From contig JBEWZL010000200.1 of assembly GCA_045837725.1 (NCBI GenBank), positions 248,001-278,420 on the forward strand: a stretch of 30,420 nucleotides of DNA. Direction: 5' to 3'. The DNA is from Vermamoeba vermiformis. Taxonomy: Eukaryota. Both the position numbers and the translations under genes were made by a program. The notes beneath the pieces are model-generated. The model was not told where the DNA came from. It saw nothing but the letters and a program-made list of their open reading frames with translations, and made no database searches. Shown here one piece after another: positions 3,130 through 30,420 of the stretch (its first letter is position 1; the number at the start of each line of letters is the position of its first letter).

Positions 3130-6100
3130 TTACTTGTTCTTTTCAGGCGAGGACAGTGGTGGCAGCACAAACATGTCACCGCTCTTGCGTCGCGACGCTT
3201 CAAACTCTCTGACACTCTTGCGCACTGAGTCGTCGATCGAGTACTTCAATTGATGCACTATGTAGCTCAAGTCGATGTGATCGAAGGTCTTCAGTCCATC
3301 AAAGATTGCTTTCATTTCTTCCAACAATGTTTGGTGTCTATATTGAATGCGAATATTGGGCACATTCGTCTTGCTCAAATCTGATGGTGCAATTCGTAAG
3401 TAATGTGAATGTCGAGAAACTCGTTTCTCTTTAATTACGTACCATTGCCACCGATGCCAGGCAAATAATAGTTAGCGCCGAGCCAATTCATTTTCAAGCT
3501 CTGAATAGAGATTAGATGATATGCATAATAATTGTACATCTTACGTGTTCAAAGCCGGATTGCAGCACACTGTTGCGTCCTACTTCGCACAGATCTGCTG
3601 AACTCATCTTCCACACTTGTGCGGCAATGGCGTACTCTTCGATCAAGGGCTCGCGTGTGTAATGGAACTGCAGCGGATCATCTGCATTGCTATGGTTAAT
3701 GACTTGTCTCGCGTGTCAAGTGTCAAACACTGACCTGTTGAGAGTGACACATTGAGACCACGAGCGAAGAATTGCGGGAATGGATTCTTGGAATAATTGA
3801 GGAACAGCGAGTTGTTGCTGAGAGGACTCATTGCAATGCCTATTTGACACAAATAGAACCTAGGCACTAGTTAATATCACTCGAGTAATACAGTAATTAT
3901 ATGGTGCTACTCACAAGTACTGCAGCACGGGTGTCTTGCGCAGATTGATGCCGTGATTGATGCCATCAGCCAACAAGAACGCAGCGGCCAAATGATCTAA
4001 CTCGCCTGCCTCGCCACTGTGCGGTCTGAACTTGAAGGTTGCTAAATTAGGAAGTTAAGGAGAACGACATGGAGTGAAGGATATGCAGTGCTAGAGCGGT
4101 CATCAAGGATACAAAAACCACGTGCACGACGCAGCTGATTGAGCACCGTGAGATTCGAATAGAGATAATACAAGTAGTAGCTGTACGGTGGGTTGTGCGG
4201 CAAGTTCCACTCTTGTGGTGGCGGATACTTGCGCATCAAACGGTGCTCCAGTTTGCTCTCATCGTCCACACAGTCCACGCCCACTAAATAGCGCAAGAAG
4301 CGGTGCAGTTTGGGGTCTTTGGAGGGGTCAACTGTGACTTCGAACAGCGGCTCGAAAATATCTGCAAAGCTATGTTAGACACCTCACACAAGCAATCACG
4401 TGACGTACTTGACACCATGTCCTGCATGGTCTCGAAGTTGGGAATGCGATTCTTCTTGAATTCTTCGTACAGGCGCGGCACTTGCACCAACCAGCGCACG
4501 TGATCGGAGAACAAGTTGTTGTCGCAGACCCACGCCGCCAGTTTGGACCACTCATCGCGCTTGCGGCCATAAATCGAGACACGGTACTCAGCGAGGATGT
4601 ACTTGCTGTCCTTGAGCTCGTCCATCAATTCGTAGGTCATCTCCGCGAGATACCGGCCTTTGATGAGATTGTCGGTCTTGAGAAATATCTCGCGCAATCT
4701 CGATTCACCGATGGGATTGTATTTGAGATTGAACTTGTCGAAGCGGTGAAAGATGCGATTGTCTGCGTGCACGTCCAATCGATCGACGGTCAAATCATAG
4801 GCTGTCAGTCTGATACTTTCAAACACTTCTTGCAGCGTCAGGTGCTTGTTGTCGCGGAATATGACCACTTCCTAATTTAGAAATGACACGTGTTAATAAT
4901 GCCTCTAAGACGTGGACAGCACTTACATTGCCCTCGGACTTCAACTTCTTCTTAATGAACTTCAACAAGTGCTTCTGATTCATCGCACTGGACAAGTGAA
5001 TGTGCGTGTCAACTTTGCGAATGTTGTAAAAGTCACGATGCGCAACATTCTAAATGACACGTGTCAAATGATGTATCTTCCAATTACTCGGACTTACCAT
5101 TTGATGCAACTTCTCCTTGTCCTGATTGAGAGTCTTGTGCAGCACAAAACAGCTCTCGAGCAGGGCCAGTCGCTCGTAACAGTACGTCTTGTTGGGCCCT
5201 TCATTGGCCACGCGCAGCAGTGTGTTCAAGTCGCTGTAGTACTCGCGCAACTCGGCCACTTTGGCTTTGAATTGTGGTGCGTCGTTGTTCTCCATGGCTG
5301 CCGAGACTGTTAGCGTATTGACACGTGTCAAAGTGAGAACTGTACGCACCTGATTTTGACGGCCACACTTGTGCCACACCATCGATGAATTTGAACGCGA
5401 ACTGTTGACAGGTTAGCGATTGACACGTGTCAAAGAGCAGTTCTGCACGTACCTCAGAAGGCAACATCTCTTCCCTGGTGATTTCTTGACTGGCCAATAG
5501 CGTGACAGAGTTCGTGGTGTCAGAGGGCAGATCACGTGACTTGTAGTTGTGCGTCATCAGTGTCTCGTAGTCGTCTGTCACGTACTTGTGGCGCAGATTG
5601 ATCGCTGCCACGAGTGAGTTGAGCACTGTCAGCACTTCTTCGCGCTCAATAGGCTCGGCTGTATACGAACAGTACTGTAAGTATATGCGAGCGATAGTAT
5701 GTAATATTGTTGTACGTACTGTCCGGGGTAAGGATCAGCCGACGGAATTCAGGACGATTTAAATTCTGTTCGCGGGGTATGCCTTGAGACAACGACAACG
5801 AGTCTTTGAGTTTGAGCGTTATCTCTTGTTCCTAGCGCACTGGATGTTAGTGGAGTTCTGGTCGTTGAACTCAACTTGTGCCCAATAAAAATTTCGATTC
5901 ATTACAAAATACGCTTTTGAAATTCAATATTTTTTTGGCTGTATTTTGAAACTAATAGGAGAGAAGAAAACATAAATTGTCGTGTGGGGTGCACGGATTG
6001 GGCTCCAAAAAAATAGGTTCAAAGACCAAACATTATTTTTTAAATTACAATACCTTAGCTTGTTGGGCCTGGTAAGCATAAAATTCTTGGGTGTATTCGT

Positions 6101-6179
6101 ACGGATCAAAGTTCGGGTTGCTAAACGCCGACGCGTAGTCAGGCGGTGTAGCCCCTCCATTCGGCGGTGAGTTTTCCAT
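3130..6179 (-). CDS. AMPD: AMP deaminase, ~12 exons
   Basis: Family motifs include [70 protein letters not shown] and [11 protein letters not shown] at 6179 (MENSPPNGG), TAA at 3130. Introns join in phase. Confidence 0.97.
4042..4112 (-). other. U12-type (minor spliceosome) GT-AG intron in AMPD
   Basis: 5' site GTATCCTT, branch TCCTTAAC 10-15 nt before the AG. Removal gives in-frame [16 protein letters not shown]. Confidence 0.88.
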
Positions 6180-6747
6180 ATTATACGGTTGATGCTGTGG
6201 TCACGCTTTGAAAATGTAATTGAAATTGAATTTGCTCGAAGAGACAAAAATCGAACGAATGAAACAGAAATCTCGCAGGAAATTCAGGCGGAGCATGGTG
6301 CCCAGGCAAACGAACGATTAAACGACGCACCTGTAGTCGCATGAGGGGTAAAAAAAATGGATATGGGCGAGGTTTCCACCGAGCCAACGCAGGAAGAACT
6401 TATTGGTCGGAGAATCACTCGCCGTGATAATCAGAGTAGCCAGGAAACCACTGCGATGGTACTCCTAGGTCCTTGCACGTGATCAACAAGCGACAACACT
6501 GCTGCTACACAATGCGTTTGATGGCGGGTTAGCGGTGACCAGTTATTAGTGCGACAACTATTGTGGGAATAGAGAGATGCCCTTCAAATGCTGAGCGAAG
6601 GTTATCGCATGGACAACGAAAGGTATCACCAGTTGAACTGTCTTGTCGCAGCGGATCCAGATCTGGTCTCTACCAGGGCTACAGTTCAAGAAAAGTTTTC
6701 AACTCGTTTTTTTTCAGTTGTTATCTCTTTTTATTACAGTGCACAAC

Positions 6748-8447
6748 ATGGCTCTCTTCGTAGGCAAGTTATTTTCCTTTGCGGCGCTCTTTTGAACGTT
6801 ATTATTGCACATCAAACGAACTAAATCGGATTTGAAATTATTGAAACCTGAAATTACAGCTTGATCTTTGCCCTCCCGTGACATCAAAATTAGTCCTAAT
6901 AATTTTACTACAGGAAGATTACCAAGTGACGTTCGTCAACGAGAATTGGAAGATTTGTTTGATAAATACGGCAAGATCCTCCGTTGCGACATTAAGTCAA
7001 GTAGGTTAATACAATCAAGATTGTAGTCGTATTATATGTGATGGTTTATTTTTTCTTAACGCACTGCGTATTTTGCACTAAGCTTAGAATCTTCTGAAAA
7101 TAACTGAATTCAATTATTTATGCGTGCTTAAGCGTTAGATGGTTGCAATAATGCTAACAATACAATTTTAGGCTATGCCTTCGTCGAGTTTGAAGACAGC
7201 AGAGACGCTGAAGACGCCATCAAGGAGATGGACGGCTACCGTTTGAGCGGCCGTCCCATCGTCGTTGAATGGGCTAAGGGCAAGAGAAGAGGTGGTGAAT
7301 CGCGAGGTTAGTGCACATTAATATTCTCAGACCTAAATAGTGTGACTAAAATGATATCATTTAGCTGGAGGAGGCGATCGCGATGCATGCTTCAAGTGCG
7401 GCGAGAAGGGTCACTGGGCTCGTGAATGCCGCAAGTAAGTATCATAACAAAAAGTATATGACATTGAGACGAAGTATACTAACTGTTGCTTAGTGGTGGT
7501 GGCGGAAGCAGCAGCCGCAGCGGCCGTCGTCGTTCCAGATCCAGATCGAGATCAAGATCACGCAGAAGATCTTCAAGGTAGGCCTTTATTTTCATTTTTA
7601 TATGCTTAAATTCTTGAGTTATGCTTAAGAGCAATTTGATGGAAAATTGATTTTATTTTCAATTCTTACACTTACGACTGGATCCATTTATCCACATCAT
7701 CCATTGACTAGCTCAATTCTCGCTCGTGTCCGCGGTACTGCTGCGCTGTAGTTGCAACACTCGTGCTGGAGGCCAGGTGAAATTGCTGCGCCAAGTCGAG
7801 TTGTTAACGAGAGGTCCCGGTCACTGCTGTTCAGTTCTGAGAAATTGTGTCGTTGCGGTGCTGCTGACTAGAGGGGGTTCAGTGAACGGCCAGCTGATCA
7901 CGTGGTCACTCTGATGATCTTTGCTCTGATGGGGCTCTGCGCTGGTGCTGGTAGTCACTTCAGGTCAAGTTCAGTGAGCGGTGCTGTCCATGCCAAGGGT
8001 GCGACATCTCGGTCTTGTGTCCAGTTCTGGCGCTGTTGTCTCATTTCAGTCCTGTCTTTGCGCGTGTTTTGTGCCTTTTTTGGTAATGTCCCTAGAACTT
8101 TATCTAACTCTTTTTTTTCTTTAAAGATCGAGATCCAGAGATCGCAGAAGACACTCTCGCAGCAGGTAAGCCTCATATATTATTATATTAGTGTCTTTAC
8201 AGTCAGCTGATCATTTTCTCTACGTAGATCTCGTGATCGTCGCAGATCCAGATCTGGTGAGCGCAGAGACAAATCTCGCTCTCCTCCTCGCGATGAGAAG
8301 AGAGACAGATCTCGCGATCGATCTCGCGACAAATCTGCTGAGCGTGAACGTGACAGATCTCGCTCCAGATCCGCTGACAGACGTGAACCAGAGCCGCAAA
8401 CTAACGGCGATGATCACGGTAAGACTGATGCCCCCGCTGATGATTAA
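6748..8447 (+). CDS. SR splicing factor, RRM + CCHC zinc knuckle + RS domain (SRSF7/9G8/RSZ-like), 7 exons
   Basis: Exons 6748-6763, 6914-7000, 7172-7306, 7365-7434, 7494-7577, 8127-8165 and 8228-8447. They give [55 protein letters not shown] and RS repeats. Confidence 0.93.
6764..6913 (+). other. GC-AG intron (first intron of SR gene)
   Basis: G|GCAAGT donor restores the RNP2 motif LFVGRL. Confidence 0.85.
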
Positions 8448-8688
8448 ATCTGAGGCGTAAGGGCTGGATCAAGGGCTCCGTATTTCGGACCTTTGGTTTG
8501 GATTTTAATGTCCACCAACAATAACTCTTTTTGTAGAAAATAAACAAATAAATATCGTGGTTAATCCTATTAATTGAATGCTCTTTTCCCTTGTTGTCAT
8601 AATCCACCAGGGCCATCATACCAAAAGTGTCAAATGCCTCTTGAGCTCAAATGGGTCTCATTTCATTAATCTTAACGTTACAACTACA

Positions 8689-9531
8689 ATGCCTCTTAGT
8701 CCAAAAGTGTCAGTCACCACTGGAGGCAAGTAGATCTGTCAAACGAAACGTGCCAACAATTTGTTGCCGATAACAATTTGACACTTCAGTTTGCGTAATT
8801 TTATTAATTGTTATTTGGTTAAAGGAATCCATGGTCGATGCTGGTTCGCCAAGTAAGCGTCGTAGATATTTTTTGTATTTTTTGCGCAATTTTATTAATA
8901 AATGCAGCGATGATATCAAGAAGGGAGAGAAAATTTGGTGGAATGACCCAAGCATTACCAACTACCGCAAAGAGAAGGCTTTGACTGTAGATTTCCAGAC
9001 ATTCGCGACCTGGCCCAAAGACAAACAAGACAAGTTTATGGAACTCGCTTATCAAATCGATGAAAACACACTCGAAGGGTTCCCCGAGGGTGTTGAGCTC
9101 CCTGAAGACTTTGTCAAGGAGAATTACGTCAATCACTGCTGCGATGGCAACTGCTGGTTCGAAGGCGATGATTTGATCGTCGCTTCACGAGACATCGCGA
9201 AAGGCGAAGAAATCAAGTAAGAGAGCTTGTTTGACCTGACGCAGACCACTACTCACCTCTGCTGCTCAGCTACGATTATGCACTCACCGAGACCTCTTCG
9301 TACTTCTCGCTGGATTGCTTGGTAAGTCACCGCTCATTTGAAACATGACTGACACGTGTCAGTGTGGCAAGGCACTGTGTCGCAAGAGAGTGACAGGCGA
9401 TGATTGGAAGGTAAGTGTCGTCCTTGACTGCTAGCACATACTGACAGCAACAGTTGCCCGAACTCCAAGCCCGTTATGGCAATCACTTCTTGCCGTACAT
9501 TCTCAAGATGATTGAAGCGCACAAGCAGTAA
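8689..9531 (+). CDS. Small SET + post-SET domain protein (putative lysine methyltransferase), 6 exons
   Basis: Spliced product contains GIHGRCWFANDDIKKGEKI, YVNHCCDGNC, RDIAKGEEINYDY and post-SET CLCGKALCRKRVTGDDWKLPELQARYGNHFLPY. Confidence 0.9.
8726..8824 (+). other. GC-AG intron (first intron of SET gene)
   Basis: G|GCAAGT donor puts GIHGRCWFA in frame. The GT 4 nt downstream gives the wrong frame. Confidence 0.75.
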
Positions 9532-9629
9532 ATTGAAGCAGAGCCGCGGCAAATATCCAAATGTGACCAGTAATAATAGTCCAATAAATAAGTGTTTGAA
9601 GTATTTACAAGCTGTACAAGTGAGTGGCA

Positions 9630-11859
9630 CTACAGCGGCACACCATCCACGTCGTCGTCGTCATCCTCTGCTGGCACCACTGTCTTGCGCTCAGCACTCG
9701 AAGTGAGTGAGGGAGTGTGACTAGTCTCACCGACGAACACGCCGCGCAATTGATCGAGCAGATCTGGTGGATAGAGCGACCAGTCCAGCCAGATCTTCAA
9801 TACCCGCATTATTGGGTCTTTGAAGTTCTGCGCCATAATTCTGCTCGTGAATGTCTTGTACTTGGCGTGCAGGGCCTCAAAGATCACGGGCAATGTCTCT
9901 TGAAATCTGACACGTGTCGTTAGCTCTGACGCACTACTAGCGTGCTATTGGCGGTACTTACCCAGCACGGAACTGACTGCCGTGTTGTATGCCCGCATTG
10001 CTGTTGTACAAGATGTCTGAGATGAGCCACAGTCGTGCAATGGCGAGTACTGGTGACAGCTCATTGGTCTGCACCAGCATTGACTCGCTCAACACGCGCA
10101 CGAGTTCTGCAGCACTGTCCGCACGTTCAACTGCAAATATCATTGCATCTCTGATCGAGACACGCGACAGATTCAAGTGTTCGAGCAGTGACTTCCATTC
10201 ACTCAAATCACGTGGCAGAAGTGGCTTGCTGCGGAACTTTTTCATGAATGCAGACCAGTCGAATTGGAAGGGCTCAGGCACGGGTGGTGGTACCCACAGC
10301 GGACCTCCAACGAACATGACGAACGGTGTTGTGCGCCACGACTCGAGCGTGTCACCTTGGAGCAGCGAATACACGCGCCATCGATAGTAGAGGTTGTCAT
10401 TGGTGCCGTTCTGAAACAAGAAAGACAGCTTGGGGTGCTGTGAATGACGCTCGACAAGTTGTTGCTGCAGCGATCGTATTAATACTAAGTATATATATAT
10501 CTCACGCGCGGATGTACGCACCTCAAACTGCTGTCCATGCGTCACTACGAGCTGCGCCAATCGATCAGCGGTCTCGCGCTTCGACTGGTCACTCGGAGGC
10601 ACCACAATCAGCTGCGGCGGTGCTTGCACTGCACTCGCTGTGCCTTGTGCCCAAGGAGGAGGTGCTGCAACATCTGCAGGACATTAGTATGATGTGCCTA
10701 TTGTACAATCAATGTACGCACTGAGCGAGGGAGGTGGTGCAAAGTTGTGACTGGGTGCAGACTGGTGTTTGGGTGCACGACCCCAGCCCAGTCGCGGCAC
10801 TTGTCCCATAATCTCTTTGTCGCGCATTGCTTCCATCGCTCGCTCTGCTTCAGCGCGTGTGGCAAATTGAACAAATCCACTGTTGCGCGCCTTCTTCTTC
10901 TCCTCTTCAGTCTTGGGCCACAACACTTTGACACTCACAACTGTGCCGTAGGGACTGAACTCGCGGCGTAGTATCTGTTATATATGGTTGAGGTTCAGGC
11001 AATGCAATCGAACAAGCAGAAATGACCGTACCTCTTCCGTGACCTGCAACGAGAGACTTCCAAGAAAAATATTGGTGCTGGTGGCATCAGGCAGTTCATC
11101 CTCCGTGCTGTGTTCTATTCTGTTGCCCGTAGGACCCTTCGCGAACTTCCTGCGCTCTTTTTCTTCTTCTTGTCTGTTACAAAACTGTTCAGTATTGAGA
11201 GTCAACAACACTGGCATAGTGACGAGCTAACTTTTTCAACTCCTCCATAAAAGCATCAATCGTGCGCTTCTTGCCCGTAATAGGAACATTATCGGTGGTT
11301 GGCTTGGGCACTTCACGCTTAGCTATCTCTGCATCCAGTTTGTACTCGCGATTGTCAACCGCTTGTTGCACGGAGAGACCTTTCTCAGTCTGAACAATTG
11401 TTTCTCCGCGCACGAACATTTTGCCTTTAGAATCACTAGCAGAAAATGATTGCACGAATTCTTTGTACACAGCATCTGCCTCTTCTTGTTCTCTCTAATT
11501 GACAACAGAGGAAAAAAAATATGAATATTCGTCGTAAAATTGAATAACATGAATAATTGCTCCGTGTATCACCAAATACGTGTTGCTCGCGGCTTTTCAA
11601 TATTGTGATTTTTTTGAACTAAGCGAGGGCCGGTGGATTACCTTCTTTTTCTTTTCAGCTTCCTCTTTTTGCTTTTGAAAAGGAGATTTGATTACTTTAC
11701 TAACATTTTTCTTGACCTCATTTATATCAGTGGTCTAAAGGCGGTGAGTGGACTTATACCGAATAACGAGAAGAAAGATCTCCGTACCTTGGATGTGGGC
11801 GGTGCTAACTTATCCTTATCGAGCCCATAGGGCAACCGCCTATTAATATTGTCGTCCAT
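9630..11859 (-). CDS. U2SURP: U2 snRNP-associated SURP motif protein (SR140): RRM + SURP + CID, ~8 exons
   Basis: Motifs include [27 protein letters not shown] ([32 protein letters not shown]), SURP ([13 protein letters not shown]), CID ([13 protein letters not shown]) and terminal DDVDGVPL. Confidence 0.93.
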
Positions 11860-12027
11860 AGGTGGACTTTATGCAATAACTGTCTCACAGACGGCAAAAT
11901 GAAACTCATCGCTTTTGGGCGTTTTTTCTTCGGAGAATATTTGCGAAGAATTTTTGAGGCTCGGTTTTGGTCATCCTCGTCTGTCCTTGCTTTTCTCATT
12001 CGTAGCTCCATTGTGCACAGTAGAAAC

Positions 12028-12940
12028 ATGGTCTCTTTGCGACTTCGTAAACGTTTAGCTGCCAGCGTCTTGAAATGCGGCAAGAAGAAGGTTTGGTTAG
12101 ATCCTAACGAGACTTCTGAGATCGAGATGGCCAACTCTCGTAAGTATTTACTATTTACTTCCTTATAATAATTACAAATACTAATAATATAGTACCCGCA
12201 TTATTTGCTGTTGATATTTTTTTAGGGTTATTTATTGGCTTGCAATTTTCAAAATAATAATAATAATAATTAAATTATCAGGTCAACAAATCCGCAAGTT
12301 AGTCAAGGACGGTTTGATCATCCGTAAGCCCAACAAGATTCACTCGCGTGCTCGCGTTCGTGCCAGAACCGAGGCCAAGCGAAAGGGCAGACACATGGGT
12401 TTTGGTAAGAGAAAGGGTACCAAGGAAGCCAGAATGCCCACCAAGGTCCTCTGGATCCGCAGAATGCGTGTTTTGCGCAGAATGTTGAAGAAATACCGTG
12501 CCCAAAAGAAGATCGACAAATTCTTGTGAGTATCAAAGATCGATATTTTAATAACCGGATCAGCCAGAAAAAAAAACCAAAATTAGGAAGCAACTCAATA
12601 TACAAATGATCGACACACAAATTTAATTGTGGCATGATATTCTACCTCCATAATTTTAGAACCGAATCTAATCTCGTATCTGATCAGGTACCACGAGTTG
12701 TACTTGAAGGTCAAGGGTAACGTCTTCAAGAACAAGCGTGTTTTGATGGAACACATCTTCGAAGCCAAGGCTGAAAAGCAACGTAACAAGAACCTCGAAG
12801 AGCAAGCCGCTGCTCACCGTTTGAAGAACCAAGCCAGACGTGAGAGACGTTCAAAGAAGGTCGCTGAGCGCAGAAAGTTGGGTGTTGCTGAAGAAGCTGA
12901 GGACAAGCCCCAAGACACTAAGGCCCAAGCCAAGAAATAA
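12028..12940 (+). CDS. RPL19: 60S ribosomal protein L19 (eL19), 3 exons
   Basis: [41 protein letters not shown] and [19 protein letters not shown]. Introns at 12140-12281 and 12526-12687. Confidence 0.98.
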
Positions 12941-13083
12941 GTCGCTTCTCTGTCAAATAATAAAACCAAAACCTTCATTAAAAACTACTGTGCTCCTCTT
13001 TGATTAAAAGAATAGTTTTATTATTAATTACAACTAATAGCGCCGCAATATAGTACTAGCTATTGATTTCTATTAGGATGGGC

Positions 13084-13597
13084 TTAGACGGCAGCTCTGA
13101 TGATTTGCAACAAAGCAGATCCGACAACAACGAACAAGAAGAAACCAATCACAACAGGACCGACTGCGAGGGAGCTTTCTTTCTTCTGCAATACATAAAT
13201 ATGCATTAATAAGCGTTACTAAGCAATGCAGATGAGGATCAAACAACTTACGGTGCTGCCAGAGGAGACGTTTCCTCTTTTTTCAATATTTTGATGGAAT
13301 TTCTCGCTCTTCTTTCGCAACTTGCGTACTTGAGGTGACTATGCAATAACGAGATGAATTAATAAGCTAATTCATGTTGGGCAAGAAAATTCAAAATAAT
13401 TATGAAAAACTAAAAAAAACTGAAATAATTATTTGTATTATCGTTAACAGTTGTAAGAGTATGCATTAGTTGTAGTGTTGTATTTGCGAAACAGAATTAC
13501 AGTTAATATTGCTGAAATGATCTATTTTCAAAATATTATTTGCTAGCCCACTGCAGCAGCTCACTGCAGGCCATGTAACAGCAATACTTACAGGCAT
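13084..13597 (-). CDS. SERP1: RAMP4/SERP1 stress-associated ER tail-anchored protein, 64 aa, 3 exons (not in ORF track)
   Basis: Exons 13597-13592, 13338-13252 and 13185-13084 give MPSPQVRKLRKKSEKFHQNIEKRGNVSSGSTKKESSLAVGPVVIGFFLFVVVGSALLQIIRAAV. Confidence 0.92.
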
Positions 13598-13825
13598 GTT
13601 GTTATAGTGCGGAGACTAGTGTGTTATTGCTATTAATAATACTGCACGAAATAACTGTTCCGTGACGTGGAGCCAGAAATATCCCTGCTGGTCAACATCG
13701 GTCATTATCAATTCATCGCTGAATACGAGCACATATATATAGGGAATATATGTTCGTATTCATTTAGGACCTATTGCTGCGGTCCATTTTGTTGGTGTTG
13801 ACCTCGCGATTGACTCGATCTAGAC

Positions 13826-18675: not shown

Positions 18676-19004
18676 CTCCCTCTGATGGCACAGGTATATT
18701 TGCAGTATTTCCTAATTCGTCAATGCCGGTACTTCATTTGCAAGAGCTGGCACTGACTACAGCAGTCGAATGTATCGCGTCCATTGCTGTACAAACTGTA
18801 ATAAAGCAGTCGAGTCCGTGGAGCACGTGACTGGAAATTTCCAGATTGAATCACGTGCCTGACAGCGACTGTTTGAGAATTCAACTGGGCATTAATTTCG
18901 TACCAATCGATTGAACGGACCACGATATGTATATATAGTACTCTAGCGAATATAATTTGTAATTATTCTTGTAATTATTTGTTTGTATTATTTGTAATTT
19001 AACA

Positions 19005-20979
19005 ATGGAGGTTGCGGATGTGCCCGAAGATCTGGTAAGACAATTTAATTATTAATTTTTACATGATAGAAAATTCGTTGCGACGGCATTAGCACTAATG
19101 AATGTAAAACGCAATTTCGAAAAGCGCATCTGAAATTAAATATGAATTTTCTTTGCCGAGCAGGACGGCGCTGCAGAACTGCGCGAATTATCTCCGACAT
19201 TAGAAGAGATCATATTGTCGTCAGAACTACACACCTATGCGAACGAAGAAGAGCTGTGGCAAGAGTTGCAGCACTTTATTCGCAAGATCTACTCCGAGAC
19301 GTACAACGCGACGGGCAGTCAGAGCGATGAAATACTGAACATACCCTTCGAGCGAGTGTATCCTTAGTCCCTAGTCTCTGTACATATCTCACCACTCGGT
19401 CGAGTTATTTCCTTAACAGGCACTTGCCATATTTAGACATTGGCTGGTGCACGCGCTGTGCGTGGTGAATGCAGACTACTTGCTGCGCGTGTTGGAGAAA
19501 GAGGCCTATCGCTACTTGAAGTTCTTGCAGCACCAGCTCTTGGAGTCCATGTCCTGCCTGCCTGACAGTACGTCCAAATTTAGCAATCGCCGTTCAGTGA
19601 ATTGACACGTGTCACAGATGTCGAGTCCAAGGCCGTGTCCAGCGTGTTCTTGAAGTTGATTCTGATCACTTTTGAGAACCTCATGTGCACCAACGACATC
19701 TTCAACGGCGTGCTGGTGAGACTGTCACGTGATGCTGTGCCGTTCACTGAACTGTTAACTAACTACCTTTCCTTATTTAGACACTACTCCACAATTGCTA
19801 TCTGTTCCGCTTCAAGTTTTCGTTTGCAGATCTGAACAAAGGTCTATTTTTAGAACTGATTTGGAACAACGACGAGTCACGTGACAAAGCGAGCAACAAA
19901 TCCATCAAGAGCTACGTCGATCGATCGAAGAGTTTGATATTTGCACAGCGCAGTCACAGCGAGGCAGTCAGCGAGGAGTTGACGCAAGCCGATCAGAATT
20001 TCTTCGAATTAGGACAACAATTTCTCAATTTTGAAGCCGTGCTCGACGAGTTCAAAGTCACGTGGCCTGTGACCAAACAGCGCATTCTGACTTATCACGT
20101 GATCCACCCTGATGATTTGCAGCTCATCGTGCAGGACATTAGAACGCAGCTGCAAACCACCGCAGAGCATTTGCAGTTCAGTGACGAGCACGTGGACAGC
20201 GAGGACGGCGAATTCAGTGAACCAATCTCCGCGGAGATCCCGATCAGACCACGTGTCAAGAGGTCACTGAATCGATCAGCACTGAATCTGACGACGAGAC
20301 CACAGTTATTCCGCTCAATCAGTCACGTGTGCGGCGGACCAATCACAACGACCATTCAGTGAATGCACTGCGCGACAAACTGCGGAACAAATATCGCGCC
20401 AAGAAACAAGCGGAGACTGAACAGCATCACGTGCCTGACGCGCAGTCAGAACACAGTACGACACTGTGCTGTCAACTGAAGACCTCTAACAACATTTCCT
20501 TATTAGGCAATGACTCGCGATCCATCGACGAGTTGGTGAACTTCATCAACCAAGAAAAGAAGAAAAAGAAAAAGAAAAAGTCCAAAAAAGGAAACCCGTC
20601 CTCCACTCCAGCCTCAGATGTGCCACCAGCACTGACCAATCACGTGACAAGCACAGCTGCAAACACTGATCACGTGCCAGTCAAATCACTCGCGCAATTA
20701 AATGGTCTCGGAGCCTATCCGAGGTTCTGGGAAGAGGACCACGAGTCACGTGATCCTGAACTCGACAAATTAGTCGAAGAATTCCGGCAAAGACTCGCAG
20801 ACCACCAGCTAAAAATAGAAAAACAGGAACCTGCAAAGATGAAAATAGAGCCACGAGCCTTTGAACGCCTGGCCGACATTTGTCGGAACAGTTCTAAAAA
20901 TAGATTTCAGAGCCCTGGTGAGCGCACTGCACCCGCCAATCAGGGCACTCATCGCTCAAAAAGGAAAAAGAAAAAATAA
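19005..20979 (+). CDS. FAM193-like protein, 5 exons, one apparent 1-nt frameshift at ~20340
   Basis: N-terminal LWQELQHFIRKIY..LVHALCVVNADYLLRVLEKEA and C-terminal LRDKLRNKY, RSIDELVNFIN and DPELDKLVEEFRQRL. These resemble FAM193 conserved blocks, recognised from memory. Confidence 0.65.
19358..19436 (+). other. U12-type GT-AG intron in FAM193-like gene
   Basis: 5' site GTATCCTT, branch TTTCCTTAAC (19408-19417), AG at 19435-19436. Splicing gives in-frame PFERVHWLVHAL. Confidence 0.88.
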
Positions 20980-21712: not shown

Positions 21713-21799
21713 GAGCTAAAAATAGTCCGTTTGTACTTTCCTAATTTGTAAATAAATTGCGCAAAGCTATCATACAGGGTGATTTATGGTTGACAGGTG

Positions 21800-23083
21800 T
21801 CACTGTGCAGGTCGACAGTTGACGCGGTGCTGCGGCCAGTGTTCGAGCTGATGTTCGCGACAGCAGTACTTGACAGCACGACACTGCGAACAGCGGAACA
21901 ATTGATAGGACTTGGAGCACACCACGCACTGCTGCTCGAGGTCGATGTTGAACCAGTTCTCGACTTGACGCACTTCACTGAACAGCTTGCCAATGTACGG
22001 ATGTGGATGCAGCACCCCGTCACTCACGCGCCACGAGTGCCAGCGCTGCAAGAACTGCGCGACTTCGAGGCCGTAGTTGGCTTTGTTGCTCACATTGCGC
22101 AACTTGCTGGCAATGTCGCGTCGCACAAAGCTGTAGTGATACATCTCTACCTCCCCGCGCTCAAACAGGCGGTGGCGCATCAGCTGTTCAGGTACTGCAG
22201 TGCGGCGTGTGGGATCGACAATCGCGGGGTGTGGGTGTGCGAGCAGAATGGGCGCGTCAGCACGACAGACGCAGATGAAGGGCACGGCATTGATCTCATC
22301 GGGGGGCCAGTACTCGTAGTGCGCAGTCTTGAAGAAGGTGCGCATGCGACAGGTGGTGCTGGTCCAGTGATTGAGCAGTATCTGTTGCTTGGCGTAGCGC
22401 AGTTCCTCGCTCTTGTAGCACTCGTCTGCGTCCAGACTCATGAAGTGCGTGCACCCTGCGGCCAGACACCGCTGACGACCTGCAGTGTGACACGTGTCAA
22501 ACATCAACCTCTGTCATGCGCTATTGTTGACGCACTCACCTAGCTCGCGCTTGCTCGTCTCGTTCATGAATTGTTCGCCAATGGTCTCCACAGAGCCGCC
22601 CACCTCTTCGGGGCTATGAAGAGCTGTCAGTGGCACTTTGCCGCGCTCGTGGCTGCTAGTACGTACCGCGCTCGTGGGGAAACAATTGCGAGTCTCTCAG
22701 TCACGGAGAAGGATCGCGGTGTGTAGTGGACCAGTTCGTCGATCAGACCTCTCTTCTTGAGATCAACGAGCAACTCTTCTAAGTGTGGATTGGCTTGGTT
22801 GCCAAAATTAGAAATAGTTTGATATACCACCACAATGTAGTCCACGTCATTGCGAATGGAGAGAATAGAGGCTTCTAACAGTTCTTCGGAATCGAAGACT
22901 AATTAAATAATTAGTCAATAAATTAATTTAATTAGCTAACATCATAGACGTAATCAACTATAAGGAACTGCGTAGAAAAAAATAAAATAAAAAAACAGGG
23001 ACTTGTTTGAATTTCCGGGCCTGGATCGTGTTTGACATTTAAATCGCTTGTTACGTACGGTTATAACAAGCCCCTAGGCGCAT
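21800..23083 (-). CDS. GT-A fold (GT2-like) glycosyltransferase domain fused to C-terminal MYND zinc finger, 4 exons
   Basis: MRLGACYNLFDSEELLEASILSIRNDVDYIVVVYQ..ETSKRELGRQRCLAAGCTHFMSLDADECY (DxD motif)..MYHYSFVR. C-terminus CVVC..CSQCRAVKYCCREHQLEHWPQHRVNC is a MYND finger. Confidence 0.8.
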
Positions 23084-25129: not shown

Positions 25130-25339
25130 AATAACTAATATCAAGTGAATTGTACAATGCTGAGTGAGTAATAAACCCACGGAGTGTATATAGATCACAC
25201 AACAGCACCGCACTTTATTGCACGGAATACGCAAGACGTCTTTGCCAAATAAGGCAATACCTTCTGAGGGCTGCCTCCAAAGACTGCTTTCACCGTGCGC
25301 GCATCAAGTCACCAGTCACATCAAAGTCACTGCAACTCT

Positions 25340-26011
25340 CTACTGCGTGCCATCGCGATTGTCCATGTACACCAAGCTCTGTGTGATGGCATTCACAGGA
25401 CTCGCTTTGACACGTGTCAAATTGTGAATGTGACGGCGGATATTCGCCTCTAACTGCACGGTGCGCTCTCTGAACTGCGTGCCCTCATCGCTGTGCAGTA
25501 TATTCGATCGTTCGAGCACTACGCGCCCTGGTCTAGCGCGCATCTTGCGAGAGAGCAGCACTGCGTTCTGTTTGAACTTGAGCTCGCGCAGTGTGTGATG
25601 CAATTGACGTGCAATAGTGCTGGGCTCGCACAAAATGTTGGCATCGAGCAGTTGTTGGGGTAGCGGTCGTTTATCACTCGTAAGTAATTTTTCGATCAGA
25701 TGCGCCACAGCGTCAAACGGCATCCGCGTGCCTAGAGCCCAAATTTCTTCTGCGAAGTGAATATCGTTCTTAGAATCACTCTTTTCTTCTCCAAGTGATG
25801 AAGCAGGTTTCGAAATCCGTTCAGAAAATTCGAAATTATTTGTTGCATCCAGCCGAGTATCTTGGAGCGTAGTATTGTTGTCTGATACGCATGATATTAA
25901 TAATTGTTTAATTAATCTTTACATATACGCGAGAAATTACTTACTATTAAACACGGGACCTAATTTCAAAGTCGGAATTGCAACACGATCTTGCAGTACT
26001 AGCGCTGTCAT
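25340..26011 (-). CDS. RPEL-repeat (G-actin-binding-like) protein, 2 exons
   Basis: LIEKLLTSDKRPLPQQLLDANIL and LSRKMRARPGRVVLERSNIL match the RPEL pattern L..K...RP....L...NIL. ATG at 26011 with an in-phase GTAAGT..CAG intron. Confidence 0.72.
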
Positions 26012-27215: not shown

Positions 27216-27746
27216 AGCAGCATTCACTGCTGGTATACTCCCTGTACATATTAATCGACTTGTAAATTAAATTTCCTGCAAACATCCGCTTTTGTCGATC
27301 GTCTTTGTCAGTCCCGTGCAGCGCGATGAGGATAGTATTGAGCACTACGATCAAGACCACCCCTCGCGCCAACAGCTGCATAGTCCTTCAGATTTCATGC
27401 AGTGCTCAGTTGTCACTCTCGTTTTTGGGTCGCAAACCAACTCTGACTGCGCCTTGACCTCTCCGCGATTCTGGTACGTAGTTTGTTGGCCCTGCGCTGC
27501 TCGTGCGATGTCTCTCGGCGCACTGCTGCACGCGGTGCTGCTCCTGGAGGGGTCGACGATCGGATGCTCGAAAACGCAATAATTCAACGCGACGTTATTC
27601 GCATAATTTCTAACACTACTTCTCAACTGATTCATGCCTATTATGCACAGAAATACAGCGCTAATATTTCAGTCAAGAAGAGAAGTAATTTTTGACTTAG
27701 ATGGGTTTAATTTTAAAACTTCAACAACACTTGTAGATTATGTTTA

Positions 27747-29057
27747 ATGGTAATGCGACAGCGTGGACGTGATTATAAAAATTATATTAACGAATATAAA
27801 CGCCCCCAGACTGACACACCAAATCCATCGCAACAACAGAAGAAGACTGGCTTGCAGTGGCGAGGCAAAGACTTCTCCTTTGCGCGCCCTCAATCCACCA
27901 CCACACTACCCACCTCCCCTGCACCCAATCCGCACTCACCGCTCAGTGCCCCAACCACGCCTGTTAATAGCTCACCCCTCGTTACGCAGCCACATCCACT
28001 CACTCCCACACAGCCTGAACACACCGACACACATTCTATCACTACTCCTAGTCTCGAGCAGGGCACACAGGACACGAGTAGGACACTAGGCCCTGCACTG
28101 ACCGAGCACAAACCCGTTGTAAATATGATCAAGTCAGCCCCCAAGATGACCGCACTGCCTGTATATAGTCCCAACCCGCTGCAGTCGCGCGGTGTCGTCA
28201 GGGCACCCACCCCCGTGCTGCACGCACCGCCCCCCCACCCACTCACACCGACACAGCCCAAGATGGCAGCGACTGTGCGGCCAGTGGTCAGTCCGCCCCT
28301 CGTGCCTGAAGATCGCAAGCGCAAAGCAGATCAGATGATGTCCGCGAACACGCCTGAAATGCAGTACAAGCGGCGTGTGGTGCAAGCCCTGCAGAGTGAC
28401 GCGAAGAGTGCCGGACAGCCCGCACTGACACCGTTCCTCAACTGCGAGGACGTGCTAACGCGACTGCTGCCCTTTCACATCTTTCAGCCCGTGGACAGCG
28501 AGACCCTGGTCGATGGTCTGCGCGAAGAAGAGCTGCAAGTGCGCTATCAACAGCTGCTCGACGACTATCACGCGCGCAGTGCAGTGAGTGCGTGCAGCGA
28601 GGAGGCGCTGCTGATGGAACGGCTGCTGTGGAGCGAACAGCGCGAGGAGTTGCAAGCGAGTCGTGAGCTGTTGAACAAGTACCTCGCACAGCTGCAGCAA
28701 CAGCGGCAGTTGCAACAACAGCTGCTCCACTCCACCGTGAGCACTGGACCCAGCACCAACACCGTGCCCGCGGTGATGCACGGCACTGGCACACCACTGA
28801 CACCCGGGGCAGTGAAAGTGATTGCCAGCACACCGCACACCGCACCGCGCACACAGCCGCTCAATGTGGCCGTGATGGCACCTGGCATGGGCAAGACTGG
28901 CCTGCTCTCGGCACAGACCATGGCGCTGATTCAGAAAGTCGCGCATCATCAGAGTGTCAGACCGAGTGTGGTGACACCTGTCAATGTGGTGCCCGTACCA
29001 CCCGCGATCAGCAAAGACGAGCACGTGATCAATCTGTTGCCACAGAACAAGAGTTGA
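27747..29057 (+). CDS. GLTSCR1/BICRA-domain protein (putative non-canonical BAF subunit), Pro/Thr-rich
   Basis: 436-aa ORF. TPFLNCEDVLTRLLPFHIF followed by LLMERLLWSEQREE matches the GLTSCR1 domain pattern. Possible in-frame 60-nt intron at 27750-27809 after the ATG. Confidence 0.78.
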   Translation: MVMRQRGRDYKNYINEYKRPQTDTPNPSQQQKKTGLQWRGKDFSFARPQSTTTLPTSPAPNPHSPLSAPTTPVNSSPLVTQPHPLTPTQPEHTDTHSITTPSLEQGTQDTSRTLGPALTEHKPVVNMIKSAPKMTALPVYSPNPLQSRGVVRAPTPVLHAPPPHPLTPTQPKMAATVRPVVSPPLVPEDRKRKADQMMSANTPEMQYKRRVVQALQSDAKSAGQPALTPFLNCEDVLTRLLPFHIFQPVDSETLVDGLREEELQVRYQQLLDDYHARSAVSACSEEALLMERLLWSEQREELQASRELLNKYLAQLQQQRQLQQQLLHSTVSTGPSTNTVPAVMHGTGTPLTPGAVKVIASTPHTAPRTQPLNVAVMAPGMGKTGLLSAQTMALIQKVAHHQSVRPSVVTPVNVVPVPPAISKDEHVINLLPQNKS

Positions 29058-29139
29058 TGGCATGATGCGAATAAATAAGGTTGTATTATTGTTAAATAGG
29101 ACCATAGACTATGTACAATGTGAATACAATTGCGCGCTG

Positions 29140-30039
29140 TTAGCTGCCGTCCCCTGCGCGGTGCAGTCGCTGTTCCATGGCCTGCACCAGGGACAGCATT
29201 TCATCGACCAGGGCCACGCTCTGCACTGACAGCATCGTGCGCGGTGTGCTGCGCGGTGATTTGCTGGCTGTCACGTGCTCGGTACTGACAGGCACGTGAT
29301 TGGTTGATGCGTGTTCGGTACTGACAGGCACGTGATTGGTTGATGCGTGTTCGGTACTGACAGGCACGTGATTGGCTGTCACGTGCAGTCCATTGGTGCT
29401 GTCAGTCGTCTTACTCGCAGCACTGGCCGTGAGATCACGTGCCATGAGCTCGGCTTTGAGATCTTTAATCTCGTCACGTGCGCGCTGCAAGAGATCGGTG
29501 AGTTCATCGCGCTCAGTGTGCAGGTACGTGATCTCTTCCAGCTGCTTGTCAGTCACCTCACGCGCGCGCTTGACTTCATCGCTCAGTGTGCGCTCCACGC
29601 GCTCCAGTCGCTCGTTCTCTTGCTCCACACTCACCAGCTGTGCTTTCACTGAATCGTAGTCACGTGACAGTCGTGCCACACTCTCCTTCAGCTCGTCAAT
29701 CTGACCACTCGCATCACGTCGTGCCACCACTCCGCGCTCGCGCTCCTCCTCGACCACGCGCTTCATCTGCTCCACGGCACTCTGTCGCTCACGCTTCTCG
29801 CGCTCACTGCGCTCCAGCTCCTGCTCGACTTGACGCAGTTGTTCCGCTTGTCGCGCACTGGTCTCCTCCAGCTCCTTGATGGTCTCTTCGAGCTCCTGTT
29901 CGACCATCCTGCTCGACTGTTCGAGCTCGTCGTGCTGCGTCTCCAGCTCACTCAGCGCACTCTGCAGCTCCGTGCACCGCGCAGTCAGTTCCACCACTTG
30001 ACGCTGCAGTGCCTCCACGGATTGATTCGACTCGCTCAT
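29140..30039 (-). CDS. nudE: NudE/NDE1-NDEL1 family dynein regulator
   Basis: Coiled coil with ELEQSSRMVEQELE, VEQENERLERVER and LQRARDEIKDLKAEL. C-terminal helix VALVDEMLSLVQAMEQRL. Confidence 0.82.
   Translation of the reverse strand: MSESNQSVEALQRQVVELTARCTELQSALSELETQHDELEQSSRMVEQELEETIKELEETSARQAEQLRQVEQELERSEREKRERQSAVEQMKRVVEEERERGVVARRDASGQIDELKESVARLSRDYDSVKAQLVSVEQENERLERVERTLSDEVKRAREVTDKQLEEITYLHTERDELTDLLQRARDEIKDLKAELMARDLTASAASKTTDSTNGLHVTANHVPVSTEHASTNHVPVSTEHASTNHVPVSTEHVTASKSPRSTPRTMLSVQSVALVDEMLSLVQAMEQRLHRAGDGS
29279..29375. repeat. 36-nt coding tandem repeat, ~2.7 copies (NHVPVSTEHAST), each carrying CACGTG
   Basis: tcggtactgacaggcacgtgattggttgatgcgtgt starts at 29279 and 29315, with a partial copy at 29351. 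Confidence 0.95.
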
Positions 30040-30420
30040 CGTGCCCTGCGAGAGGTGTCAGTAGTGTCGTGGTGCAGCATCGATGCACGAGTGATAACGT
30101 CGCGCGGAATGGTGATTTAATTTAAATTCAGAATAATAATATCAATATCAATAATATATTTAGGAGCAGTATATGGCGTATTAATGTCATATAGAGCTGG
30201 GTTATCGCGTACAATGCAATACTTACTCAGATGTGTAAAGATATCATGTAATAATGCAAATTGAATTGAGATTGCCTGTTGATGACGAGCTGAATATACA
30301 CGATGCAACGAGGTCTATATATATATTAATTCTATGATGATGATCTATTGCCTCGTGTTTGTTCGACACGTGTCGCTGGATCTGATAATTAATTCAACTT
30401 CGTCATCACAAACACAACAC

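Follow-up and report, generated by a model that had tools for sequence, protein, structure and literature searches.

Gene-selective loading of the palindrome CACGTG in Vermamoeba vermiformis and its possible reading as arrays of E-box binding sites

The hexamer CACGTG is so frequent in the 30,420-nt stretch of the Vermamoeba vermiformis genome analysed here (the window) that it raises the question of what would place one palindrome in exons, introns and spacers alike. A sequence-only reading of this DNA had described the motif as saturating the genome in a HIP1-like manner, and its counts were accurate: the exact number of copies was 70 (estimated at about 70), base composition predicted 6.4 (estimated at about 6), and exactly 45 copies lay between 14132 and 20747 (estimated at about 45 in 14.1-20.8 kb). 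CACGTG was the top-ranking 6-mer by count in the window. Dinucleotide shuffling gave 10.46 ± 3.21 copies, with a maximum of 17 in 100 runs; shuffling within 1.5-kb blocks gave 12.0 ± 3.3, and none of the 300 runs reached 70.

CACGTG is concentrated in three tracts

Genome saturation was not borne out. Three tracts (approximately 10 kb, four genes) held 62 copies versus 6.0 expected, and the 20.4 kb outside them held 7 versus 5.8, leaving two thirds of the window unenriched. In the loaded genes, a copy recurred every 100-300 bases, whether in exons, tiny introns, or untranslated segments. As had been reported, RPL19 (whose identity was confirmed), RPS18, and the segment 1-4118, which spans the orphan cassette at 1-3.4 kb, were free of the motif. 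The loaded tracts were somewhat richer in GC than the rest; however, GC3 failed to explain the loading, since the MYND gene (GC3 0.74) has no site and the GLTSCR1-domain gene (0.65) has one. The sequence-only reading had also raised a spacing periodicity related to nucleosomes, but in tract 2 the intervals followed a Poisson-like distribution (CV 1.03) and lacked any period of 3, 10.5, or 140-200 bp; two pairs were only 8 bp (16587/16595) and 12 bp (15617/15629) apart. These results suggest that particular genes are marked at the DNA level in a manner not described before, and they do not suggest genome-wide saturation.

Tract 1 (4119-5538) comprises eight copies in the body of an AMP deaminase gene on the minus strand, recognised by AMP_deaminase Pfam matches on the ORFs at 4284-4871 and 5053-5412. 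Isolated copies follow at 6476-6481, in the interval that separates the 5' end of the AMP deaminase gene from that of the 6.7-8.7 kb gene; at 7899-7904, in a 549-nt intron of the latter gene (RNA joints 7571/7574 to 8124), where it is the sole copy; and at 10209-10214, where the motif encodes P-R-D on the minus strand in a SURP-domain gene. The last two are conserved in the syntenic relative L001, whereas the copy at 6476 is not.

Tract 2 (14132-20752) accounts for 45 copies over two co-oriented plus-strand genes and their spacer. The most heavily loaded gene, at 14435-18675, encodes a TMEM94-like pseudo-P-type ATPase, as indicated by tblastn of 1200-1700-aa homologs; it has many 45-55-nt introns and a weak Cation_ATPase_C match, and its start at 14435 is our reading of the sequence. 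Its disordered acidic exon contains the densest stretch (16425-16850, plus strand), with 11 copies in 426 bp (one per 39 bp). The second gene, g19.8 (19781-20979), was delineated from its ORFs and an RNA-derived contig, the latter revealing a 51-nt intron at 20456-20506; it carries 10 copies in its ORFs and two upstream, and a Pfam search of the ORFs returned no family. Tract 3 (29022-30372), which may continue past the end of the window, contains 10 copies, namely eight in a minus-strand coiled-coil protein gene (29140-30039), one upstream of it, and one in the last codons of the GLTSCR1-domain gene. Three of these eight lie in a 36-bp tandem repeat at 29274-29375, and apart from them the flanks of the copies in the window are unique.

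Reading frames, imprint on proteins, and conservation

By position, 44 of the 70 copies are coding (including the site at 5533, whose ORF has no family support), 10 are intronic (three of them probably), eight are intergenic or in UTRs, and eight have no class. The coding copies fall in frames 0, 1, and 2 in the numbers 21, 20, and 3, and the density of the motif in introns and UTRs is similar to that in exons, in agreement with the earlier description of sites in exons in different frames, in introns, and between genes. That they are rare in promoters held only loosely, since the copies at 6476, 14132, 19606, 19726, and 30367 are upstream of genes.

Codon usage did not account for the excess. 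The loaded genes contributed 5,754 bp of coding sequence with 38 sites, compared with 14.9 ± 2.5 after synonymous shuffling (maximum 23 in 500 runs) and 3.6 ± 1.8 after codon permutation; the coding sequence of the unloaded genes had two, versus 1.5 expected. Valine was encoded mostly by GTG in the loaded tracts (96/135 versus 51/142). The proteins themselves bear the imprint of the motif, which writes H-V, (S/P/T/A)-R-(D/V/A), and, rarely, T-C/W. His-Val pairs numbered 20 versus 4.5 expected, and 18 of the 20 were encoded by CACGTG. The density peaked where the protein was least constrained, with 11 copies in the 426 bp of the disordered exon versus one in 621 bp of membrane domain. A conserved residue was nonetheless affected: the copy at 4497-4502 (minus strand) encodes His-Val in the catalytic core of AMP deaminase, at a position that is Asn in 93 of 107 homologs and Asn-Val in 79 of them. 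A single AAC-to-CAC substitution produces this change and creates the CACGTG, which is kept in L001 and shared by a 97%-identical protein (P0001). The loading is thus dense enough to have reshaped the proteins of the four genes.

Comparison with relatives indicated retention above background. In L001 (76.7% nucleotide identity), 7 of 12 CACGTG copies were exact, compared with 29-30% whether the background was taken over all hexamers or over those centred on CpG or matched in GC (P about 0.03), and in poorly conserved neighbourhoods 5 of 9 were kept versus 20% (P = 0.02). Five of the six alignable sites in tract 1 were exactly conserved, and L001 showed the same pattern of loaded and unloaded genes. 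Within the densest exon, where the motif gives S/P-R-D, S-R-V, P-R-A, or H-V, a motif-compatible peptide was kept in 29 of 34 site-by-relative cells from three relatives, and all five changes of the first residue stayed within the NCA codon family (S/P/T/A); the copy at 16595 was missing from all three. At 79 distant AMP deaminase loci (949,728 bp), we found 140 copies versus 235 expected and no enrichment at any locus. Among the loci compared, only the close relative was enriched (10 versus 2.3), and the loading therefore appears to be lineage-specific. Survival of the synonymous null, use of all three frames, presence in introns and UTRs, altered proteins, and conservation in a relative together uphold the proposal of a pressure acting on DNA, distinct from promoter logic and codon usage.

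Flanking bases and a separate 12-mer class

T immediately preceded 36 and G 14 of the 70 copies (position -1), and A immediately followed 26 and C 17 (position +1), which matches the extension (G/T)CACGTG(A/C) noticed by eye. The symmetric half-site can be written R-R-(T 60, G 31 of 110)-CAC. T at -1 and/or A at +1 was present at 48 of 55 sites, compared with 43% expected from composition, and the flanks were essentially random past position ±3.

Approximately 10-15 CACGTG sites belong to a separate 12-mer, TGACAC[C/G]TGTCA. The form TGACANNTGTCA occurs 15 times in the window, with a central pair of CG in eight copies and CC/GG in seven, never GC, and some copies have AT...A flanks. Three copies of TGACACGTGTCA lie in probable introns in tract 1: those at 5055-5066 and 5319-5330, both in probable AMP deaminase introns, are conserved in L001, the second as an island in diverged flanks, and at 5421-5432 L001 has TGACAAGTGTCA adjoining a 5-nt indel. 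Another TGACACGTGTCA (9350-9361) is between the SET gene and the 3' end of the SURP gene. On the plus strand of the TMEM94-like gene, two copies of TGACACCTGTCA (14628-14656) occupy a 48-nt intron (14611-14658), the second ending at the acceptor; TGACACCTGTCA at 15078-15089 is the only copy in a homology-supported exon; TGACAGGTGTCA at 15995-16006 is at the 3' end of the intron 15961-16013; TGACACGTGTCA at 17321-17332, whose TGA is an apparent in-frame stop, is at the 3' end of a 51-nt intron (17285-17335); and TGACAGGTGTCA at 17638-17649 directly precedes the exon 17652-18272. The remaining copies are TGACACGTGTCA upstream of g19.8 (19603-19614), TGACAGGTGTCA and TGACACGTGTCA at the 3' and 5' ends of the MYND gene (21791-21802 and 22488-22499), TGACACGTGTCA near the 3' end of the 25.3-25.9 kb gene (25408-25419), and TGACACCTGTCA in the 3' part of the GLTSCR1-domain gene (28972-28983). 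The TGAC and TGTCAG of the intronic copies may double as branch site and acceptor.

Candidate explanations and known systems

We favour, with a probability of roughly 0.4, the reading that the gene-selective arrays are putative binding sites for a dimeric E-box protein. Such a symmetric protein, with the flank preference of Cbf1/USF/TFE-type bHLH-leucine-zipper factors, would bind the copies, which would have accumulated and been kept at the DNA level along whole transcription units of a subset of genes, in the window those for AMP deaminase, the TMEM94-like membrane protein, g19.8, and the coiled-coil protein. In so compact a genome, whose spacers are short and whose introns measure about 50 nt, almost no room would be left outside the gene body, and sites would be written into exons in any frame that the protein tolerates. 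Coverage at one site per 100-300 bp could confer a special chromatin or transcription state on a gene, for example by nucleosome exclusion, an elongation roadblock, or nucleation of silencing, and the genes could be switched as a group. In RNA run X21, a single condition from a diverged strain (7,954 of 19,629 mapped reads at least 99% alike), the depth was 0-4.4 for the loaded genes, 30-41 for the 6.7-8.7 kb gene, and about 300-600 for two ribosomal protein genes. The low RNA is consistent with repression without proving it, and it is not exclusive to the loaded genes, as the SURP gene (three sites in 2.2 kb) had a depth of 1.1-2.8.

Motif-directed biased repair or gene conversion, turning near-cognate words into CACGTG and restoring mutated copies irrespective of function, is a less probable alternative; a sequence-specific methyltransferase coupled to mismatch correction would be one example, and the tracts would then mark the regions in which it operates, for instance units prone to recombination or transcribed only at certain stages. 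Independence of frame and coding status, preference for unconstrained protein, and bending of even a catalytic-core residue agree with it, and conservation in a relative would also be expected if lost copies were restored. For the changed Asn, a site-level drive fits at least as well as the binding-site reading, since selection for a given count of sites in a gene would be expected to use positions of low cost. The pairs 8 and 12 bp apart are probably too close for two dimers and, together with the absence of the 16595 copy from relatives, look more like opportunistic site creation than selection for occupancy. AACGTG/CACGTT was depleted (1 versus 7.5 in the loaded tracts, 6 versus 11.7 elsewhere), although the counts are tiny and the word is one of nine neighbour classes compared. 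According to excerpts of PMC4390886, methyltransferases have been connected with HIP1 in cyanobacteria. However, a repair bias should act genome-wide, whereas the interleaved genes are unenriched and the same contrast recurs in L001. The deficit of CATGTG/CACATG (5 versus 27.5 expected) that T:G correction would produce was nonspecific, being common to CATG-containing hexamers generally and just as strong outside the loaded DNA as inside it (0.20 and 0.16 of the expected number). CpG observed/expected was 1.06, and there is therefore no trace of 5mC decay. Of the two mechanisms offered by the sequence-only reading, methylation-coupled biased repair thus left no specific signature, and the agreement of the flanks with a Cbf1-type E-box makes a DNA-binding protein the better fit.

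A signal in RNA, with CACGUG in pre-mRNA bound by a protein or self-pairing and marking transcripts for nuclear retention or removal, would explain the coincidence of the tracts with transcription units (exons, introns, and the 3' UTR), the gene selectivity, and the weak representation of loaded genes in RNA. We consider it improbable, as the symmetric flanks match a bHLH DNA-site preference that an RNA-binding protein need not require, and copies occur upstream of genes (6476, 30367, and probably 19606). Neighbouring sites showed no more mutual complementarity than distant ones (0.93 versus 1.01 extra bp; 99 versus 889 pairs), and the folding of the densest 501 nt surpassed that of shuffled sequence only by a small margin (z = -2.1). 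An origin from a mobile element, for instance an introner-like or short hairpin element that left footprints or miniature copies, is very improbable: in the TMEM94-like gene, several tiny introns have ...CACGTGTCAC... in common, but copy-like flanks were confined to the 36-bp repeat, no target-site duplications were found, and the 44 in-frame coding sites align to homologs without insertions. Still harder to credit is the idea that the excess arose artificially from base composition, codon usage, repeats, or the assembly. The GC content, the GTG preference, and the tandem repeat would favour it, but the excess survived the dinucleotide, local-block, synonymous-codon, and codon-permutation nulls, which refute it; moreover, GC3-matched genes carry no sites, the flanks are unique, and sites are shared by the independently assembled L001 and the independently sourced proteins P0392-P0394 and P0001.

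Among known systems, Cbf1 has the consensus RTCACRTG, USF and TFE factors have a related flank preference, and E-box factors act mainly from promoters. The sites described here resemble those of such bHLH(-zipper) proteins in the T/A flank at 48 of 55 sites and the purine at -2. In yeast, excerpts of one study indicate that Cbf1 prefers T 5' and/or A 3' of CACGTG, a single good flank being enough, and that E-boxes are functional in promoter nucleosome-free regions, those in ORFs being mostly weak and bound only in vitro (PMC5880240). Unlike yeast Cbf1 sites, the copies in the window are largely coding (44 of 70) and cover whole genes, and our literature search found no paper on gene-body E-box arrays. 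HIP1 (GCGATCGC), as described in parts of two papers, averages more than one copy per gene in some cyanobacteria and is 15- to 300-fold over-represented genome-wide; like CACGTG here, it is a short palindrome, frame-independent in coding sequence and conserved above neutral expectation (PMC5861425, PMC4390886). The loading in the window differs in being confined to particular genes, and its host is a eukaryote with spliceosomal introns. The 12-mer subclass resembles a TALE-homeodomain dimer site, TGACA-NN-TGTCA; the canonical TGIF1 DNA is given in part of PMC6158717 as ATTGACAGCTGTCAAT, two inverted TGACA half-sites with a 2-bp spacer, and some of the 15 copies share its AT...A flanks. Unlike the TGIF1 site, the copies here have CG or CC/GG at the centre, never GC, and many are at the 3' ends of tiny introns. 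The arrays also recall the homotypic clusters of transcription-factor sites in animal enhancers, in that many copies of one site occur within a few kb at particular genes. Those clusters lie in non-coding DNA, and we know of no report that they rewrite protein sequence, whereas the arrays here lie largely in coding sequence and alter proteins. In fission yeast, clusters of an asymmetric hexamer (DSR) in meiotic mRNAs are bound in RNA by Mmi1 for elimination. The two systems share gene-selective hexamer loading of transcription units, coding sequence included, in genes kept low in growing cells; the word in V. vermiformis, unlike the DSR, is palindromic, and its symmetric flanks resemble a DNA-binding site.

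Abundance and gene-selective distribution of CACGTG

CACGTG occurred exactly 70 times in the window, as against 6.4 copies expected from base composition. Shuffles that preserved dinucleotides (n = 100) contained 10.46 ± 3.21 copies with a maximum of 17, and shuffles inside 1.5-kb blocks, which kept the local composition (n = 300), contained 12.0 ± 3.3; none of the 300 reached 70. CACGTG was the most frequent hexamer of the window when both strands were counted (140 vs 75 for the second), and a comparison of the ten CANNTG classes revealed enrichment of CACGTG alone, about 5.8- to 5.9-fold, with the rest at 0 to 1.5-fold. The copies had unique flanks except for three in the coiled-coil gene, which lie in a 36-bp tandem repeat at 29274-29375 (2.8 copies, 98% matches); each repeat unit carries one CACGTG and encodes ...T-N-H-V-P-V-S-T-E-H-A-S... 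Several other short words were unusual in frequency: CCGG was rare (19 copies vs 177 of GCGC; 0.52 of the second-order expectation), CATATG was absent (7.8 expected), CATG-containing hexamers were 3- to 9-fold below the dinucleotide expectation, and GATC (1.44) and GTAC (1.52) were in excess.

The sequence-only reading had counted about 70 copies, about 45 of them in 14.1-20.8 kb, often extended to (G/T)CACGTG(A/C), and had listed genes that it named RPL19, RPS18, RPB11 and SR (coding exons) and the 1-3.4 kb orphan cassette as motif-free. The counts (45 in that interval), the flank letters and the lack of the motif in these genes proved correct. Its description of the motif as saturating the genome did not hold within the window, where the enrichment is regional. 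Three tracts at 4000-5700, 14000-20900 and 29000-30420 (10.0 kb together) contained 62 counted copies vs 6.0 expected, approximately 10-fold (this count omits one more copy that falls at a block edge), whereas the other 20.4 kb contained 7 vs 5.8 expected. The tracts match genes: an AMP deaminase gene, identified from Pfam (4000-5700); a TMEM94-like pseudo-P-type ATPase gene (about 14.4-18.7 kb) together with the adjoining gene at 19.8-21.0 kb and the intervening spacer; and the coiled-coil gene (29.1-30.0 kb). The interleaved RPL19, RPS18, SET, SURP, MYND, GLTSCR1-domain and 6.7-8.7 kb genes and the left-end cassette contained 0-3 copies each. GC3 or codon bias was rejected as the cause of loading because loaded and unloaded genes overlap in GC3: the MYND gene (0.74) has no site and the GLTSCR1 gene (0.65) has one, and loaded exons span 0.51-0.70. 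Spacing in the main tract was Poisson-like (CV 1.03), with no period at 3, 9.5-11.5 or 140-200 bp, so that the nucleosome-related periodicity considered in the sequence-only reading was not found.

The left-end cassette, which is AT-richer and motif-free, is flanked by a direct repeat, 97% identical over 198 nt or more (1-198 and 3073-3270, plus 206-287 and 3364-3449), that runs off the left window end. This arrangement resembles a tandem duplication with a unit of 3.07 kb, or else an LTR-like pair.

Coding sequence, expression and conservation in relatives

Using exon outlines based on ORFs, RNA joints and alignments to homologs, we placed 44 copies in coding sequence, 10 in introns (3 of them probable) and 8 in intergenic or UTR sequence; 8 were unassigned. 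The coding copies occupied all three reading frames, which bears out the frame independence claimed from the sequence: 21 were in frame 0 (His-Val), 20 in frame 1 ((S/P/T/A)-Arg-(D/V/A)) and 3 in frame 2 (Thr-Cys/Trp), the scarcity of the last being expected from protein tolerance. The enrichment also survived a codon-preserving null, on which the sequence-only reading had made its claim depend. The confident coding sequence of the loaded genes (5,754 bp) contained 38 copies vs 14.9 ± 2.5 under a within-ORF synonymous-codon shuffle (maximum 23 in 500 shuffles), and the excess is therefore not due to codon usage. Codon permutation of the same genes yielded 3.6 ± 1.8 copies. The unloaded genes (6,996 bp coding) contained 2 vs 1.5 expected.

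The gap between the synonymous and permutation nulls indicates that the amino-acid sequences themselves are skewed towards CACGTG. His-Val occurred 20 times in the loaded genes vs 4.5 expected, with CACGTG as the coding sequence in 18 cases; the unloaded genes contained 4 vs 3.9 expected. The clearest single case of a protein bent towards the motif is the AMP deaminase core. Asn-Val precedes Arg-Trp in 79 of 107 homologs, and Asn is found at this position in 93 of 107; the window, like its relative at 97% identity, has His-Val instead, and a single AAC-to-CAC change creates CACGTG.

RNA joints, the sequence and in-frame insertions relative to homologs showed that introns of 45-60 nt are numerous, and several carry CACGTG. 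Tiny introns of 48-58 nt were located at 14611-14658, 15961-16013, 17285-17335 and 18273-18330; some are multiples of three and open or nearly so in frame, so that ORF-based gene calling reads through them. An apparent in-frame TGA at 17321 lies inside an intron, and a recoded stop was rejected for this reason. At 20221-20359, the two long ORFs in the 19.8-21.0 kb gene overlap while lying in different frames, and an RNA-derived contig from run X5 spans 19823-20455 with one gap. This suggests an indel of 1 nt that stems from strain variation or from an error in the assembly.

RNA reads of a single condition (run X21) gave depth in 29 of 30 bins; their strain is a diverged one, with 7,954 of 19,629 reads at least 99% alike. 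Among the 40 differences listed in the read comparisons, with a further 1290 outside the list, none fell at the key CACGTG sites. The loaded genes were weakly expressed in this run: depth was 0.02-1.45 for the AMP deaminase gene, 0-1.1 for the TMEM94-like gene and 0.8-4.4 over the 18.7-21.3 kb stretch, as against about 300-600 for the two ribosomal protein genes, 30-41 for the 6.7-8.7 kb gene and 6-15 for the MYND gene. Low expression is not exclusive to loaded genes; the weakly loaded SURP gene had a depth of 1.1-2.8. The X21 reads also showed an opposite-strand joint between 12027 and 12498, as well as hundreds of loose ends at two positions, 11643 and 11677, which suggests that the sequenced strain has an inverted segment or differs structurally upstream of RPL19.

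A single metagenome scan yielded one close relative, contig L001, whose AMP deaminase has 96% amino-acid identity and which is syntenic with 4470-14595 at 76.7% nucleotide identity; the evidence base is one 30-kb window and one 10-kb relative. Exact conservation was found at 7 of 12 aligned CACGTG sites (P about 0.03, from 12 comparisons) vs a background of 29.7% for all hexamers, 28.8% for other CpG-centred hexamers and 30.1% for GC-matched ones. Where the neighbourhood was less than 78% identical, 5 of 9 sites were kept vs 20% (P = 0.02), and several conserved copies stand as islands amid diverged flanks, e.g., at 4887, 5322 and 5533. Turnover was also seen (5 window-specific and 3 L001-specific sites), and genes had the same loaded or unloaded status in both species. 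In the densest exon (16001-17284, 12 sites), a motif-compatible peptide was present in 29 of 34 cells of a comparison with three relatives of independent origin at 78-86% identity, and in its disordered part the motif-overlapping residues were 85.6% identical vs 74.4% for the others. All five substitutions at the first residue of x-Arg-Asp were S-to-A or P-to-A, within the NCA codon family, which indicates that the DNA word is kept.

At 79 distant AMP deaminase loci, 949,728 bp in total, CACGTG occurred 140 times vs 235 expected, and none was individually enriched; the loading is therefore lineage-specific. A search for further relatives with the TMEM94-like exon found no match in genome-contig or viral-contig scans, and the RPS18 query returned only two archaeal S13 genes from the genome contigs and none from the viral contigs. 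The RPS18 exon was 94-98% identical to environmental or transcriptome sequences; identity was 76-78% with early-diverging fungi, chytrids among them, and 72-77% with animals. These values place the source no more closely than as an opisthokont-like eukaryote lacking an annotated near relative.

Flanking bases and a second palindrome

Fifteen CACGTG copies have GA at -2,-1 and/or TC at +1,+2, and most of these fall in a longer palindrome, TGACAC[C/G]TGTCA. The general form TGACANNTGTCA occurred 15 times in the 30.4 kb window, once in the 949,728 bp of control loci and 3 times in L001. These 12-nt copies start at 5055, 5319, 5421, 9350, 14628, 14645, 15078, 15995, 17321, 17638, 19603, 21791, 22488, 25408 and 28972, and their central NN is CG in 8, CC/GG in 7 and GC in none. 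All are non-coding or unassigned, save one CACCTG-type copy at 15078; they often reach to the acceptor of a 48-53-nt intron, several of them ending precisely there, or lie at gene ends, and may double as branch site and acceptor. We treat the 12-mer as a separate element that includes CACGTG incidentally in about half of its copies. Its layout of two inverted TGACA half-sites with a 2-bp spacer corresponds to a TALE-homeodomain dimer site; however, the canonical DNA of TGIF1, given as ATTGACAGCTGTCAAT in PMC6158717, has a central GC, which differs from the CG or CC/GG of the window copies.

When copies with 12-mer-type flanks were excluded, the remaining 55 CACGTG showed a symmetric half-site, R-R-(T/G)-CAC, with T in 60 and G in 31 of 110 half-sites at the base next to the core. 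T at -1 and/or A at +1 was found in 48 of the 55 (both in 12, one in 36, none in 7), where composition predicts 43% with at least one. According to PMC5880240, yeast Cbf1 prefers a core preceded by T and/or followed by A; one favourable flank is enough, and strong sites have both.

Interpretation and comparison with known systems

These observations call for a pressure whose target is double-stranded DNA, or a self-complementary word, within particular transcription units, and which is able to override protein constraint. We favour the reading of the CACGTG tracts as arrays of candidate sites at which an E-box dimer of the Cbf1/USF/TFE type would bind, with a probability of roughly 40%, because the flank signature and gene selectivity fit it best. 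Such a protein might coat the gene body and could affect nucleosomes, elongation or silencing. It is a more doubtful proposition that the tracts form a gene-body code, in which a palindrome-recognising dimer, or a drive coupled to one, would write a CACGTG per 100-300 bp through selected transcription units, override coding constraint and thereby lead to a distinct chromatin or transcription state.

A conversion drive of a HIP1-like kind (HIP1 being the highly iterated palindrome of cyanobacteria) is a serious rival, if an unlikely one: it would account for the costly Asn-to-His change in AMP deaminase, for CACGTG pairs spaced 8 and 12 bp and for the scarcity of AACGTG across loaded tracts (1 vs 7.5), but it leaves the untouched interleaved genes unexplained, and the CATGTG signature that it predicts is not specific. 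A deficit of CATGTG/CACATG, the trace expected of very-short-patch-type repair, was rejected as evidence for such repair since it belongs to a general CATG-hexamer deficit that is equal in loaded and unloaded DNA. The methylation-coupled repair suggested by the sequence-only reading fared no better, given this non-specific signature and a CpG observed/expected ratio of 1.06, which gives no hint of 5mC decay. A signal acting at the RNA level in transcripts is improbable. Although it would explain the confinement to transcription units, we detected no excess complementarity for pairing between CACGTG copies and only a folding z of -2.1, and it does not predict bHLH-like flanks. An artefact or a mobile element is excluded or very unlikely: the enrichment survives the dinucleotide, local-block and codon nulls, and flank bases beyond ±3 are near random, with copy-like flanks in the 36-bp repeat (29274-29375) only, and the copies lack target-site duplications.

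In the literature searched, titles and abstract openings gave no account of CACGTG being enriched in the gene bodies of a eukaryote. If the tracts do form a gene-body code, they would be a counterpart in eukaryotes, restricted to selected genes, of the iterated palindromes of bacteria, and would represent a type of cis-regulation so far undescribed. If the pattern is genome-wide, a short DNA word would be selected or driven hard enough in a eukaryote to rewrite proteins, even a conserved enzyme core, gene by gene. The system would then allow the effect of gene-long sequence-specific binding on nucleosomes and elongating polymerase to be tested, and would separate selection from biased conversion as the force behind iterated palindromes, which is still debated for cyanobacterial HIP1; in such lineages, a DNA motif instead of protein function would lie behind His-Val and x-Arg-Asp peptides, as well as behind some 'conserved' substitutions.

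Sites of the Cbf1/USF/TFE type share with the window copies the palindromic core CACGTG and the T/A flank preference; however, they lie in promoter nucleosome-free regions, whereas 44 of the 70 window copies fall in coding sequence, 10 in introns and 8 in intergenic or UTR sequence. Like HIP1, the window CACGTG occurs in coding sequence regardless of frame and is conserved above the neutral level (7/12 vs 29-30%, a small sample), but the genome-wide 15- to 300-fold excess of HIP1, which in some species averages more than one copy per gene, has no equivalent within the window. Cognate methyltransferases for the palindrome or its core are a further HIP1 trait, set here beside a CpG ratio of 1.06. 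Homotypic site clusters and the hexamer clusters (DSR) of fission-yeast meiotic transcripts are gene-selective, and the CACGTG loading resembles both in this respect. The DSR motif is strand-specific and acts in the transcript, whereas CACGTG is its own reverse complement.
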